Of a stretch of 64,000 bases of DNA, positions 39,996-44,294 are shown one piece after another; the first letter of the stretch is position 1; each line of letters opens with the position of its first letter. Below the pieces are notes generated by a model. The model worked only from the letters and a program-made list of their open reading frames with translations, ran no database searches and had not been told where the DNA came from. The translations under genes and the position numbers were made by a program. This DNA is from an uncultured Bacteroidota bacterium (GTDB lineage: Bacteria; Bacteroidota; Bacteroidia; UKL13-3). Location of the stretch: contig CAISCU010000035.1 of assembly GCA_903883965.1 (NCBI GenBank), positions 25,216 to 89,215 of the forward strand, in the 5' to 3' direction.

Positions 39996-41255
39996 ATGAA
40001 CGATATTGAGCTCCTGAAAAAGAAATGTTATTCCTATGCCCAAAACCAACAAAATTGTTTGGTATTGAACAGCAATCAAATTCAGGCCGCAATGGGATTA
40101 AACAACTATGAATTTATTTTCATGTGCGGATGTTCAGACCAATTTAAAACAAGTGAACAGACGGCGTTGGCGCAATTGAAAAAGTTTATTGAAAAAAACA
40201 ATGGGAAATGGATGGGACTTTCTTTGTCGTATGACTTAAAAAATGAACTGGAACAACTCGAATCAAATAACTGCAATCAGCTTGATTTCCCCTTACTCAA
40301 CGTGTTTGTTCCAGATACTGTGATTTGTATTGATAAAGAATTAAAAATCACTTGTAACAATATGGCATTTTGGGAAGCCATCAACCAACAAGCATTAGCC
40401 ATTCAGAAGCCTTTGCCTAAGTTGGAATTTGAAGCAAGGGTGACTAAAGACACCTATCTCAATACAATCAAACAAATTCAAAATCATATTTTAAATGGGG
40501 ATGTATATGAATTGAATTATTGTATCGAATTTTACAAAACAGCATGTCCCGAAATTGAACCAGTAGCCTTATACGAAAACTTGAATTCCGTTTCACCTAC
40601 CCCCTACTCCGCTTTATGGATTGACCAAGAACAGGTGATTGCTTGTGCCAGTCCAGAAAGATTTTTATTAAAAAAGGGCTCAAACATCTACTCTCAGCCT
40701 ATTAAAGGAACAATCAAAAGAATGGCTGATTGCGAAGCAGATAGTAAACAAAAAGAATTGCTTCTCAATTCTGAAAAAGAACGGGCAGAAAATTTAATGA
40801 TCGTTGATTTGGTCAGGAATGACTTGTCTAAATCATGTGAAACTGGCAGCATTCAAGTAGATGAATTATTTGGTATTTATAGCTTCAAAAATTTACATCA
40901 AATGATTTCAACAGTAAGTGGTAAATTAAAAAATGATGACATTGTAGAATCAATTTGCCATGCTTTTCCAATGGGAAGTATGACCGGAGCTCCTAAAATT
41001 AAAGCCATGGAAATGATAGAGCAACTGGAACAAACCCAAAGAGGCATGTACAGCGGTTGTATTGGCTATATCAACCCTGAAGGCGATTTTGATTTGAATG
41101 TAGTTATCCGAAGTTTACAATACAACAAATTAAATCAATACCTCAATTTTGAAGTTGGATCAGCTATTACAATTGATTCTGACCCTGAATCGGAATACAA
41201 CGAATGCCTTTTAAAAGGTGAACTAATGATGCAAATTTTTAATAGAACTGCTTAA
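39996..41255 (+). CDS. pabB: Aminodeoxychorismate synthase component I (chorismate-binding family)
   Basis: GDVYELNY, SPERFL, PIKGT, KERAENLMIVDLVRND, FPMGSMTGAPK and RGMYSG motifs. Confidence 0.85.
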   Translation: MNDIELLKKKCYSYAQNQQNCLVLNSNQIQAAMGLNNYEFIFMCGCSDQFKTSEQTALAQLKKFIEKNNGKWMGLSLSYDLKNELEQLESNNCNQLDFPLLNVFVPDTVICIDKELKITCNNMAFWEAINQQALAIQKPLPKLEFEARVTKDTYLNTIKQIQNHILNGDVYELNYCIEFYKTACPEIEPVALYENLNSVSPTPYSALWIDQEQVIACASPERFLLKKGSNIYSQPIKGTIKRMADCEADSKQKELLLNSEKERAENLMIVDLVRNDLSKSCETGSIQVDELFGIYSFKNLHQMISTVSGKLKNDDIVESICHAFPMGSMTGAPKIKAMEMIEQLEQTQRGMYSGCIGYINPEGDFDLNVVIRSLQYNKLNQYLNFEVGSAITIDSDPESEYNECLLKGELMMQIFNRTA

Positions 41256-41992
41256 TCAACTAAGATGATTTTTTCTCTGATGATTTGCTTTCCGATTTGC
41301 ATAATAATGTAATAGCAACCTGACTGTAAATGGCTTAAATTAATATGAACCTGATTAGCTCCTTTATCAATATCAGGATTTATAGGCAATTCTCTCATTT
41401 TCAAATCAAATAATTGAATCTTCACTGATTCATTTTTGGTTTTATAATCTATGTTGATGATTCCTTGACTTGGTACAGGATAAATCAGGCATTTTGATGC
41501 TATTTCATTTTCAGTCAAATTGGTTGCAGCATTAACAGTTAAACTGTATCTGGTAACTGAATCTTCAATTGTTCTGGTGATGGTTAAAGCATGTGCATAT
41601 ACTTTAAATACAACCGACAAAGGATAATTACCTTGCTGACCAGTTTGTGGCAGACCCGAAAGTAAAATACAACCTGTTTCACCTCCGTTGGCTTTGCAAT
41701 TGATTTGATTGCATTGGTAGCTAAAATTAGCCGGCAAACCATTTACTTTGGTGACTACAATAGAATCAATGGTTGCCAAAATTGGGAATCCAAATTCAGT
41801 AACCATGGTATCTTTTGGCATTCTAAATTGGATGATTTGCGTGTAAGGTTTTGTTTCGGTTGCTTGATCCAGTTCGGCAGGAAAAATACCCGATGTTTTT
41901 AAACTCAAATCAGGATTGCATTGCGCAAACAATTGCAGCGTGATTGATTGAAACAAAAAGAGTATAATTGAATAGATAAATTTGTTTTTCAT
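41252..41992 (-). CDS. T9SS type A sorting-domain protein with Cys-rich Ig-like passenger, function unknown
   Basis: Signal peptide MKNKFIYSIILFLFQSITLQLFAQ from ATG 41992; C-terminal IYPVPS...LFDL...LSHLQSGCYYI...EKIIL matches the T9SS CTD pattern. Confidence 0.85.
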   Translation of the reverse strand: MKNKFIYSIILFLFQSITLQLFAQCNPDLSLKTSGIFPAELDQATETKPYTQIIQFRMPKDTMVTEFGFPILATIDSIVVTKVNGLPANFSYQCNQINCKANGGETGCILLSGLPQTGQQGNYPLSVVFKVYAHALTITRTIEDSVTRYSLTVNAATNLTENEIASKCLIYPVPSQGIINIDYKTKNESVKIQLFDLKMRELPINPDIDKGANQVHINLSHLQSGCYYIIMQIGKQIIREKIILVD

Positions 41993-44294
41993 GATTCGAA
42001 ATTTAATACCAAGATACAGTATTTTTATCATTATCGCTGCACAGTTTTTTGTTCTTTCAAAAAGCAATGCTCAAAACCTGTTCAAAGGAATTGTGAAGGA
42101 CATCACCACTTTAGAACCTATTCCTGGCGTATTGATTACATCCAATAATGGAGGAACCCAAACTGATGAAAAAGGCCATTTTCAATTGACGGTATCACAG
42201 GCAATTTGTACGCTCAATTTCAGGCTCATTGGTTATGAAAACAAATCAATAACAATTGAAACAAAAAACACAAAAGATACTGTATTCGAAGTTTTGATAT
42301 CACCCAGTCGCCAATTATTAGACCAAGTTGTAGTAACTGGAAACAGAAATGAACAAGCTATATCGAGAAGTTCAAGCAGTGTAGAATTAATAGGTGCAAA
42401 ATTAATACTCGACAAAGGCACAACTAGCATAGATAAGTTTTTGAATCAGATTCCATCGGTAAGTGTTTTGGATGGACAAATTAACATTAGAAGTGGCAGT
42501 GGCTGGACTTATGGAGCAGGTTCCAGGGTAATGGTATTGGTAGACGATTTACCCTTTTTAACAGGAGATGCGGGTCAAGTAAAATGGAGTTTGTTGCCTT
42601 TAGAAAACTTGAAACAAGTTGAAGTCATTAAGGGGGCTGGATCTGTATTATATGGATCTGGTGCACTGAATGGGATAATCCATTTTCGCACGCAAATGAG
42701 CAGTGGCAAACCCATCACAAAAATTCAAATGAGCAGTGGATTTTATGACAAACCAGATGGAATTGGTTTGCGCTGGACAACTAAAAACTTAATGAAAAAT
42801 CAAATCAGCGTTTTCCATGCTGCCAAATTAGGGCGTTACCAATATGCATTTTCTAGCAATTACCTCATAGATAATGGCTATAGAATGAGCGATAATGAAG
42901 AGCGCATTCGTTGCAATTTAAATGTACAAACAGCCTTCAACAAAGCCATTAAAATTGGTGTAAATATGGGTGTTTTAAATAGCAAAAGTGAATCATTTTT
43001 ACTATGGGAAAATGACCAAATGGGATATACCGCTCTTGATTCTCAAACCAGTGCCACGCATTCTCAAAGTATCTATTTAGACCCTACTATTTCATTTCAC
43101 CAAAACGGATTTCAACACCGTTTAAAATCGAGGTGGATGTATATCAACAATGAAAACTCAAATGCTGCTCAAAACAATGCTTTTAATCAATTTTATGCCG
43201 AATACCAATTACAAAAAAACTTCATAGCGTATAAATTAAACATTACAACTGGTTTGGTATACAATTCCAATTCCAGCCAAGCCAATTTATATGGTGGATC
43301 AAACACCAGCAATAACAAAGCTGCATTTTTACAAATAGACAAAACTGTCTTAATGGGCTTGCAATTGGGCTTGGGTGCGCGTTATGAATATTTTCAAATG
43401 AATGCTGATGCAACCCAACAACCAGTGTTTAGAGCCGGGTTGAATTATGAACTCACCAAAAGCACCTTTTTGAGGTGTAGCTGGGGACAAGGATTCAGGT
43501 ACCCATCTATTGCAGAGAGATATATCAATGCCAGTGTAGGCAGCATGAACATTTTTGCCAATCCAAATCTAAAAGCTGAATCTGGTTGGAGTGCAGAAAT
43601 AGGTATGAAACAAGGAATGAAATGGGGTGGTTTCAGTGCTTATATTGACTTGGCATATTTTGAAACGCGCTATGCAGATATGACTGAATTCAATTTTGGC
43701 GCATGGAAAACATACAACCCAGCGAACCCTTATACTGCTATTGGATTTAAATCTTTCAATGTAGGAAATACGCGCATCAATGGAATAGATTTGAGCACTG
43801 GATTTCAGTTCAAGAATAAAAATTGGGATATACAAAGTATCATAGGCTATACCTATTCAAAACCATTGATGTTAGACCCTAATTTGGTATTTGCATTTGA
43901 CTCTGCAAGAGGACCTCAAACATTTTTAAGCACCCGTTCTGACAGCACTTTGATTTTAAAATATCGGTTTGAACACCAATTTAAAATTGACCTTTCTGCT
44001 CAATTTAAAAAAGTTGAATTTGGCGTGAGTTACAGGTACAATAGCAGCATACAGAATATTGATATTGCATTTGTTTCTGGTATCATTCCAAGTATGGTTC
44101 CGGGTATTGAAGAAGCAAGAAATAGGCTATATAACAACAGGGCTATTTTTGATTTACGCCTGTTTTTGCATGCCAATCAATACCTAAAAGTTGGTTTCAA
44201 TTGTATTAATTTATTGAATACAGAAATAATGAACAGACCAGCCGATTTAATTGCCCCGAGATTCTATCAATTGCAATTGATGGCTGCGTTTTAA
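41991..44294 (+). CDS. TonB-dependent outer-membrane receptor
   Basis: Signal peptide ending SNAQ from ATG 41991, carboxypeptidase-regulatory-like N-domain, LDQVVVTG, plug IRSGSG..VEVIKGAGSVLYGSGALNG, ANPNLKAE, C-terminal Phe. Confidence 0.93.
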   Translation: MIRNLIPRYSIFIIIAAQFFVLSKSNAQNLFKGIVKDITTLEPIPGVLITSNNGGTQTDEKGHFQLTVSQAICTLNFRLIGYENKSITIETKNTKDTVFEVLISPSRQLLDQVVVTGNRNEQAISRSSSSVELIGAKLILDKGTTSIDKFLNQIPSVSVLDGQINIRSGSGWTYGAGSRVMVLVDDLPFLTGDAGQVKWSLLPLENLKQVEVIKGAGSVLYGSGALNGIIHFRTQMSSGKPITKIQMSSGFYDKPDGIGLRWTTKNLMKNQISVFHAAKLGRYQYAFSSNYLIDNGYRMSDNEERIRCNLNVQTAFNKAIKIGVNMGVLNSKSESFLLWENDQMGYTALDSQTSATHSQSIYLDPTISFHQNGFQHRLKSRWMYINNENSNAAQNNAFNQFYAEYQLQKNFIAYKLNITTGLVYNSNSSQANLYGGSNTSNNKAAFLQIDKTVLMGLQLGLGARYEYFQMNADATQQPVFRAGLNYELTKSTFLRCSWGQGFRYPSIAERYINASVGSMNIFANPNLKAESGWSAEIGMKQGMKWGGFSAYIDLAYFETRYADMTEFNFGAWKTYNPANPYTAIGFKSFNVGNTRINGIDLSTGFQFKNKNWDIQSIIGYTYSKPLMLDPNLVFAFDSARGPQTFLSTRSDSTLILKYRFEHQFKIDLSAQFKKVEFGVSYRYNSSIQNIDIAFVSGIIPSMVPGIEEARNRLYNNRAIFDLRLFLHANQYLKVGFNCINLLNTEIMNRPADLIAPRFYQLQLMAAF

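Follow-up and report, generated by a model that had tools for sequence, protein, structure and literature searches.

Divergent receptor and T9SS-cargo genes that share a CATG start site, with candidate promoter boxes in each other's signal-peptide codons

Introduction

The closest described relatives of the arrangement reported here are face-to-face divergent promoters and the divergent excludons, in which divergent neighbours produce transcripts with overlapping 5' ends and for which a short intergenic distance is typical (PMC12288877). The same account describes 16 divergent excludons in E. coli and 10 in S. aureus, with the overlap in untranslated regions; transcriptional interference and double-stranded RNA are named there as the expected consequences. 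Divergent overlaps between the genes themselves are scarce. They make up 1% (457 of 42,055) of the well-characterised gene overlaps of prokaryotes in the survey of PMC2478687, and all 75 of the long divergent overlaps examined in that survey were start-codon errors.

Promoters of the primary sigma factor of Bacteroidota are described as having a -7 element TAnnTTTG and a -33 element TTTG, and a minority of the mRNAs are leaderless (PMC6847099, PMC7366714, PMC9723704). In F. johnsoniae the -7 box ends at -5, with 4-5 nt between it and the start of transcription, and a -33 element was not evident there (PMC6847099). Published values for short leaders in the phylum are 3.7% of 5' UTRs below 10 nt, 5.5% leaderless mRNAs and 13% of leaders of at most 10 nt (PMC6847099, PMC7366714, PMC9723704). 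A related word, the SM5 motif of Flavobacterium psychrophilum, reads TAnnTTGY at -12 to -5; its TA and TTG are one base closer together, a pyrimidine occupies -5, and the genes that carry it include gliding-motility functions (PMC9723704).

Here we describe a locus in a 64,000-nt stretch of DNA (the window) from an uncultured Bacteroidota bacterium, in which a gene for a TonB-dependent receptor and a gene for a protein sorted by the type IX secretion system (T9SS) begin at one CATG. Like the divergent excludons, the two genes are predicted, from box positions alone, to have transcripts that overlap at their 5' ends. Unlike them, the overlap at the CATG pair reaches the coding sequences, both promoters would lie wholly in coding DNA, and the predicted transcript overlap is only about 30 nt (2 nt in the model of the first-pass annotation). 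Few head-to-head overlaps of start codons have been verified, and most of those annotated are errors; the overlap described here is 2 nt long and is pinned by comparison with relatives.

Materials and Methods

Genome-wide frequencies of -7 words were obtained from 1849 crude ORF calls with the first ATG taken as the start of each ORF, a rule that miscalled the T9SS gene of this locus on the minus strand. The gap is the number of nucleotides between box and ATG. An EM-trained weight matrix for the -7 element was dropped; it had settled on a degenerate T-rich motif, found a site in 96% of the regions and did not discriminate between the four boxes of the locus. Counts of defined variants took its place. 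A scan for sigma-70-type promoters found 10 candidate sites, where shuffled sequences gave 6.1 +/- 2.3; it was left unused, as this consensus is not that of Bacteroidota.

The comparative tally comprises 32 genomes with the divergent receptor/T9SS-protein pair, including the genome under study (G000); these genomes are related and probably represent about 6-8 independent lineages.

Results

The CATG at 41990-41993, in the local sequence gaTAAATTTGtttttCATGattcGAAATTTAat, contains the ATG of a plus-strand gene (41991-41993) and the ATG of a minus-strand gene (41992-41990). The coding overlap comprises 2 nt of codons within a palindrome of 4 nt. The translations of both genes agree with those first reported.

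The plus-strand gene (41991-44294) encodes a protein of 767 aa with the Pfam domains CarbopepD_reg_2, Plug (PF07715, E 8.7e-19) and TonB_dep_Rec_b-barrel (PF00593, E 4.7e-31). It thus has the plug and the 22-strand barrel domain of a TonB-dependent receptor; in NCBIfam every match to a receptor subfamily stayed below its own cut-off. The minus-strand gene (41252-41992) encodes 246 aa, which comprise, in this order, a signal peptide, an all-beta domain that has 4 invariant cysteines, and a T9SS C-terminal domain. Residues 170-243 match Por_Secre_tail (PF18962, E 7.5e-11), and the match to TIGR04183 scores 31.3 bits, above the cut-off of 23, which identifies the protein as T9SS cargo. Its AlphaFold model is all-beta with a mean pLDDT of 79.6. 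A fold search with this model returned only generic matches to two Ig-like domains, mostly antibody light chains, at TM 0.19-0.25 and gave no functional lead.

Sec/SPI signal peptides of Bacteroidetes follow a rule according to which glutamine occupies position +1 (PMC5837995). By inspection, both N-termini fit this rule. The receptor has a signal peptide of 27 codons (41991-42071, plus strand) ending in SKSNA/Q, where the slash marks the inferred cleavage site, and the T9SS protein one of 23 codons (41992-41924, minus strand) ending in LQLFA/Q. In an alignment of 22 orthologues of the T9SS protein, M1, Q24 and C25 are invariant. The earlier reading of both N-termini as probable Sec signal peptides with Q at +1 is supported.

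The gene pair is embedded in a block of genes without intergenic DNA. At 41252-41255 a TTAA combines the stop codons of a chorismate-binding enzyme gene (plus) and of the T9SS-protein gene (minus), and a second TTAA at 44291-44294 combines those of the receptor gene (plus) and of a ferredoxin-like gene (minus). No terminator-like sites were found in the block, and an Rfam search of 41200-42800 gave no match at E values up to 1. The GC content of the genome is 36%.

The overlap would vanish if one of the two start codons were wrong, for example if the minus gene began at ATG 42031 or at TTG 42067, or if TTG 41982 were the start of the plus gene. In the genome under study the frames are indeed open that far upstream, to 42067 on the minus strand and to 41982 on the plus strand, and annotated divergent overlaps are often start-codon errors, at least in the survey of PMC2478687. 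The relatives, however, close these extensions. In L002 the minus frame ends in a stop a single codon before the ATG; in L004-L008 it is closed eight codons upstream and offers no other start. This excludes ATG 42031, the minus start that the first-pass annotation had named as an alternative. On the plus strand, all loci of genus g1 have an in-frame stop 15 nt before the ATG, which is the sole start common to all; in L002 the plus-side TTG is missing. Together with the invariant M1 of the T9SS protein, and with the short charged start, hydrophobic core and A/Q site that both N-termini show when read from the CATG, this leaves a wrong start codon very improbable. By this comparison of sequences both start codons are real and the coding sequences overlap head to head, as had been proposed.

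The CATG overlap is kept in 17 of the 32 genomes, and the remaining 15 have spacers of 10-33 nt between the genes. No locus in the tally therefore has space for a promoter outside coding DNA. Since the start codons overlap by 2 nt in the genome under study, any local promoter must lie in the signal-peptide codons of the partner gene, and a pair of such promoters must be face to face; the earlier claim to this effect holds on geometry.

In this genome the word TAHHTTTG stands 4-7 nt before the ATG of 57 ORFs, where 4-5 are expected, and this defines a leaderless-type class. Its spacing has a peak at gap 4 (27 ORFs) and a second one at gaps 16-21. The genome thus resembles the published Bacteroidota promoters in the -7 word and has one peak of the leaderless and one of the leadered type; the share of very short leaders, judged by box geometry, is also similar to the published values. 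Ten ORFs, the receptor gene among them, have the box at gap 6, against an expectation of about 1; the N-termini of other genes with this gap, read by eye, resemble those of MetRS, LepA, ClpX, SurE and Tgt. The variant TAHHTTTC is not enriched at gaps 4-7 (6 against 2.6 expected, with 1 at gap 5). At gaps 14-25 TAHHATTG occurs 31 times against 12 expected and TAHHTTGY 52 times against 14-18, while TAHHTTGR, at 32 where 16-19 are expected, reaches an enrichment of only 1.7-2 times. In G000 the word TAHHTTGY precedes 13 of the 62 genes with a T9SS C-terminal domain, compared with 117 of the 1796 remaining ORFs (Fisher p 2.3e-4). No such difference between the two groups was seen for the canonical box. 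The -33 element, expected as TTTG some 20 nt farther upstream than the box, gave no positional signal, even around the consensus-box promoters of this genome itself, and so did not serve to rank the candidates.

Four candidate -7 boxes surround the CATG. Each of them lies in the signal-peptide codons of the neighbouring gene and none has a visible -33 element, whereas the published Bacteroidota promoters are intergenic. Against the primary-sigma consensus TAHHTTTG, TAAATTTG is a match, TAAATTTC fails at the G, and TATAATTG and TATCTTGG have one departure each.

The two proximal boxes are those that the first-pass annotation had noticed. The plus-strand box TAAATTTG (41977-41984) ends 6 nt before the receptor ATG, within codons 3-6 (N-K-F-I) of the minus gene, and predicts a transcription start at 41989-41991. 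The minus-strand box TAAATTTC (41998-42005; GAAATTTA on the plus strand) ends 5 nt before the minus ATG, within codons 3-5 (R-N-L) of the plus gene, and has a C where a G is nearly invariant in the promoters described in PMC6847099. The positions and gaps of both boxes were as first reported, and so was the TAAATTT/AAATTTA inverted repeat, which is exact over 7 nt (41977-41983 and 41999-42005) with 15 nt between its arms. The repeat is unremarkable in itself, as a stretch of 181 bases contains 3 of this kind. A search of Bacteroidota genomes for symmetric -7 motifs at CATG pairs had been suggested; among the 32 genomes only G000 and G003 have the symmetric repeat, although 17 retain the CATG, and in L002, with 78% identity, it is broken. 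The box TAAATTTG itself is likewise confined to G000 and G003. A proximal box of some kind is present on the receptor side in 3 of the 32 genomes, 2 of them with the consensus G, and on the T9SS side in 7, none with the G.

The distal boxes show a different distribution. On the plus strand TATAATTG (41963-41970) ends 20 nt before the receptor ATG, within codons 8-10 (S-I-I) of the minus gene; transcription is predicted to start at 41975-41976 and to give a leader of 15-16 nt. Of the 32 genomes, 30 have a box of this type, TAHH(A/T)TTG, at a distance of 17-34 nt before the receptor ATG. On the minus strand TATCTTGG (42009-42016) ends 16 nt before the T9SS-gene ATG, within codons 7-9 (P-R-Y) of the plus gene, with a predicted start at 42004-42003 and a leader of 11-12 nt. 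Its type is found 15-24 nt upstream of the T9SS-gene ATG, again in 30 of the 32 genomes, in coding as well as in spacer context. As a baseline for these figures, about 4.4% of the ORFs of the genome (82 of 1849) have a distal-type box antisense at gaps 14-25. Both distal boxes of G000 are off consensus, one with an A at box position 5 and the other with TTGG. The T9SS-side box is TATCTTGG in G000, G003, G009 and G010 and TATCTTGC, TACCTTGC or TAAATTGC in relatives. The forms in the relatives are like the SM5 motif, the word that is enriched before T9SS-CTD genes in G000; unlike SM5, TATCTTGG of G000 itself ends in G and not in a pyrimidine.

The boxes keep their place when their surroundings change. 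In genus g3 the distance from the box to the ATG of the T9SS protein is steady within 1 nt, whether it runs across receptor codons 2-5 or across a spacer of 12-13 nt. In L013 and L050 both distal boxes lie in a spacer of 33 nt and still face each other. Where the boxes are coding, synonymous positions are also conserved. In the T9SS protein the Ser8 codon TCA has a conservation of 0.94 at its third base, and only 3 of 243 columns reach at least 0.9; in receptor codon 7 the third base reaches 0.94 while the residue has only 0.69, and 14 of 384 columns reach at least 0.9. These synonymous-site results are not fully independent, since the boxes themselves were picked by conservation. The conservation of S-I-I and P/A-R-Y could come in part from constraint on the signal peptides at the protein level.

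Discussion

The explanation which we favour, and which we regard as reasonably probable, is that the receptor and T9SS-protein genes are an old head-to-head pair, essentially without intergenic DNA, in which each gene would be transcribed from its own promoter, facing the other and written into the signal-peptide codons of the partner. The ancestral -7-type boxes would be TATAATTG, in the S-I-I of the secreted protein, and TATCTTGG, in the P-R-Y of the receptor. They would produce short leaders of about 16 nt and 12 nt, and the two mRNAs would be complementary over their first 30 nt or so, both AUGs included. The perfect box TAAATTTG may be an additional gain of the receptor gene in G000 and one close relative, which probably gives a near-leaderless receptor transcript as well. 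Which of the boxes fire, where transcription starts and how far the two promoters interfere with one another we infer from their words and positions.

The model of the first-pass annotation was a symmetric cassette some 30 bp long, with TAAATTTG and TAAATTTC both at work as -7 boxes. Leaderless or near-leaderless mRNAs would start at 41989-41994, and only one RNA polymerase at a time could occupy the site, so that occupancy would be mutually exclusive. The plus half of this pair fits the genome: a leaderless-type class is present, and the plus box, a perfect consensus, falls at gap 6 on its shoulder, a layout that is shared with clearly genuine N-termini. TAHHTTTG is rare antisense in first codons (5 of 1849 ORFs at gaps 4-7). 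Even the minus gap of 5 would, under the 4-5 nt rule given in PMC6847099, place the start on the AUG or 1 nt before it. The minus half does not fare so well: its C replaces a nearly invariant G, the corresponding word is not enriched at such gaps, and no relative has the consensus G there. Moreover, most genomes that keep the CATG are without proximal boxes, the repeat is already broken in L002, and the palindromic look is largely due to both proteins beginning M-K/R/N. We therefore consider the symmetric cassette unlikely. It is also unlikely, in our judgement, that the locus has no promoters of its own and that both genes are served by read-through, from the chorismate-binding enzyme gene on the plus strand and from the ferredoxin-like gene on the minus strand, the conservation of the boxes reflecting nothing but signal-peptide and codon-usage constraint. 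A block without intergenic DNA or terminator-like sites would permit this, all candidate boxes but one are imperfect, and AT-rich words come easily from signal peptides rich in isoleucine and phenylalanine at such a GC content. Read-through would, however, require antisense transcription through the partner gene over 0.74 kb and 2.3 kb. It also leaves aside that the conserved bases form a -7 motif on the correct strand and at the preferred distance of the genome for both genes, that the boxes stay put in the non-coding surroundings of L013, L050 and the g3 spacer loci, and that receptor codon 7 shows higher conservation at its third base than in its residue.

If the distal boxes are the ancestral promoters, as we favour, a more far-reaching reading can be formulated, which we offer as a speculation and consider rather doubtful. 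S-I-I and P/A-R-Y would be dual-use codons, kept for the -7 box of the partner, and the locus would be a minimal, fully coding excludon, in which mRNAs that pair over both AUGs toggle or balance the receptor and its T9SS neighbour and which is maintained throughout the family.

Here one set of bases has to supply promoter elements on one strand and signal-peptide codons on the other, which makes the locus a clean natural case. It could be used to test how far promoter words constrain the N-termini of proteins, whether Bacteroidota -7 boxes function inside coding DNA, and whether a TonB-dependent receptor and a T9SS cargo can be coupled in their expression by 5' antisense overlaps that are very short. 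It is also a warning for gene callers and promoter finders that in compact Bacteroidota genomes the lack of an intergenic region does not mean the lack of a promoter.

The receptor and T9SS cargo genes remain neighbours across the family. Outside the tally of 32, L012 and L017-L020 have receptor homologues without a T9SS neighbour, and in the best matches from genus g8 (L035, L036 and L040), where no receptor gene lies within 1.5 kb, the region upstream of the T9SS homologue is AT-rich and of the ordinary kind.

Two divergent genes share a CATG

The CATG at 41990-41993 lies inside the window sequence ...gaTAAATTTGtttttCATGattcGAAATTTAat... and carries the start codons of two divergent genes. 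The plus-strand ATG at 41991 begins a gene (41991-44294) for a TonB-dependent receptor of 767 aa with CarbopepD_reg_2, Plug and TonB-dependent barrel domains; the minus-strand ATG at 41992 begins a gene (41252-41992) for a small protein of 246 aa with a T9SS C-terminal sorting domain. From each ATG the N-terminus runs from a short charged segment through a hydrophobic core to A|Q, in keeping with the Bacteroidetes Q-rule (PMC5837995). The overlap reported in the first-pass annotation is confirmed.

The receptor query gave a match, paralogues included, in 40 of 41 related genomes, and the small-protein query in 117 of the 119 genomes searched in the family; among the first 20 loci the small protein adjoins the receptor divergently in 15. 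A stop codon interrupts the plus frame 15 nt before the receptor ATG in genus g1, and the alternative plus-strand TTG of G000, the genome of the window, is missing from the related locus L002. On the minus strand, a stop blocks the frame one codon before the small-protein ATG in L002 and eight codons before it in loci L004-L008, which offer no other start; this excludes the alternative minus-strand start at 42031. Residues M1, Q24 and C25 of the small protein are invariant in 22 orthologues.

These two genes belong to a four-gene block without any intergenic base, in the order chorismate-binding enzyme (+), T9SS protein (-), receptor (+) and ferredoxin-like protein (-). The divergent junction is the CATG, and both convergent junctions are TTAA overlapping stop codons (41252-41255 and 44291-44294).

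Conservation of the overlap

The divergent pair could be examined in 32 genomes; loci L012, L017-L020 and, from genus g8, L035, L036 and L040 were left out because the pair is missing. The CATG is common to 17 of these 32 genomes (all 10 of genus g1, the single one of g9 and 6 of 15 of g3); the relatives are uncultured MAGs and not mutually independent. The remaining 15 have spacers of 10-33 nt, and one of them (G041) can also be read as CATG. None of the 32 genomes leaves space for a non-coding promoter between the two genes. The g3 spacers of 12-13 nt correspond by homology to receptor codons 2-5 in loci of the CATG type, and throughout g3 the distance from the GCAAGATA word to the small-protein ATG is constant within 1 nt. 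Since this distance is the same whether the DNA is spacer or codons, it is the DNA geometry that was kept and not the N-terminal residues of the receptor.

In the g3 CATG-type receptors (L034, L037, L043, L044, L046 and L048) the alignment to the window receptor begins only at residue 94-109. The N-terminal CarboxypepD_reg-like domain therefore appears to be missing, and the signal peptide appears to be followed directly by the plug region.

Candidate promoter boxes near the start codons

The first-pass annotation had proposed a symmetric pair of promoters around the CATG that yield near-leaderless mRNAs. Its two boxes, TAAATTTG (41977-84, plus) and TAAATTTC (42005-41998, minus), and their 7-nt inverted repeat are present; the repeat alone is unremarkable because it is one of three inverted repeats of at least 7 nt in 181 bases.

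In G000 (2.48 Mb, 36% GC), the spacing between TAnnTTTG and the ATG was measured for 1862 crudely called ORFs, using the first ATG of each. TAHHTTTG peaks sharply at a gap of 4 nt between box and ATG, with 27 ORFs, and gaps 5-7 form a shoulder (12, 10 and 8 ORFs). Gaps 4-7 hold 57 ORFs in all versus 4-5 expected; a second, broad peak occurs at 16-21 nt. According to PMC6847099, the G of the F. johnsoniae box is at -5 and transcription starts 4-5 nt further on, so a gap of 4 corresponds to a leaderless mRNA. The gap-4 class and its shoulder indicate, as judged from sequence, that a few per cent of G000 mRNAs may be leaderless or nearly so. In published work, 5' UTRs shorter than 10 nt make up 3.7% in B. 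thetaiotaomicron, leaderless mRNAs 5.5% in F. psychrophilum and leaders of at most 10 nt 13% in F. johnsoniae. The gap-6 ORFs include MetRS-, LepA-, ClpX-, SurE- and Tgt-like N-termini, named by inspection of the N-terminus and not by family search.

TAAATTTG is plausible, being of a type that is overrepresented at gap 6 (10 ORFs, this one included, versus about 1 expected). The TAAATTTC type is unenriched, with 6 ORFs versus 2.6 expected over gaps 4-7 and a single ORF at gap 5. TAHHTTTN at gaps 4-7 occurs in 3 of the 32 genomes on the receptor side, with the consensus G only in G000 and its relative G003, and in 7 on the small-protein side, with the G in none. The arrangement therefore persists without the proposed cassette.

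Conserved distal boxes

Alignment of 23 junctions and a tally of 32 revealed two further -7-like words. The plus word is TA(T/A)(A/T/C)ATTG, represented in G000 by TATAATTG (41963-70, plus). It precedes the receptor ATG by 17-20 nt where the locus has the CATG and by 31-32 nt in the spacer loci of g3. At a distance of 15-24 nt from the small-protein ATG, the upstream minus strand carries TATCTTGC, TACCTTGC, TAAATTGC or TATCTTGG; the G000 form of this minus word is TATCTTGG (42016-42009, minus). Each kind of box is found in 30 of the 32 genomes. As a yardstick, 82 of 1849 ORFs (4.4%, summed) carry words of this kind in antisense orientation among their first codons at gaps 14-25. In loci L013 and L050 both boxes lie within the 33-nt spacer and keep their face-to-face orientation. 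Among 17 representative loci, the third base of small-protein Ser8 (TCA) has a conservation of 0.94, and only 3 of 243 columns reach at least 0.9; in receptor codon 7 (CCA/GCA) the third base also reaches 0.94, versus 0.69 for the residue, and 14 of 384 receptor columns are at 0.9 or higher. These conservation statistics are partly circular because the boxes were picked by conservation.

In F. psychrophilum, a motif similar to the minus-strand word is SM5 (TAnnTTGY), which PMC9723704 ties to gliding motility among other functions. In G000, TAHHTTGY occurs 4-35 nt upstream of 13/62 T9SS-CTD ORFs versus 117/1796 others (odds ratio 3.8, p 2.3e-4), which makes it 3-4 times commoner before such genes; the canonical -7 box has similar frequencies in both groups (8/62 and 228/1796).

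Proposed promoter arrangement

Most likely, the two genes have local promoters that face each other within the partner's signal-peptide codons. The earlier proposal is supported in part: embedded facing promoters are likely, but a symmetric pair of leaderless promoters is improbable. A second, near-leaderless start from TAAATTTG is slightly favored for the G000 receptor gene. It is quite improbable that TAAATTTC works as a box, and the chance that it does so together with a start at TAAATTTG is a little smaller still. For the favored facing promoters, the conserved boxes and the 4-5 nt rule predict starts near 41975-76 (+) and 42004-03 (-), with leaders of 15-16 nt for the receptor and 11-12 nt for the small protein. 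The two transcripts would be complementary over about 30 nt spanning both AUGs. Promoter interference or 5'-end pairing between the two genes may follow, the latter by analogy with the divergent excludons for which PMC12288877 describes pairing of two 5' ends. We rate the arrangement as a variant of known face-to-face or excludon-type layouts that is itself new.

Paralogues and a second CATG pair

The small protein has four invariant cysteines and a predicted all-beta structure; a fold search found no specific relative. Several relatives contain a paralogous receptor/T9SS-protein pair tail-to-tail (for example at G024:C18:51798-54800, G010:C6:10747-13884, G020:C6:10607-13641 and G021:C1:6784-9823). 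Receptor and small T9SS protein are thus neighbors in two arrangements, and the tail-to-tail pair suggests cooperation between the two families. The G000 paralogues are on separate contigs.

G000 has a second CATG head-to-head pair outside the window (contig C33, 27399-27400). The N-terminus encoded by its minus gene resembles RecR, and its plus gene product is membrane-like; TAATATTG, within codons 2-5 of the partner, precedes the minus ATG by 4 nt.
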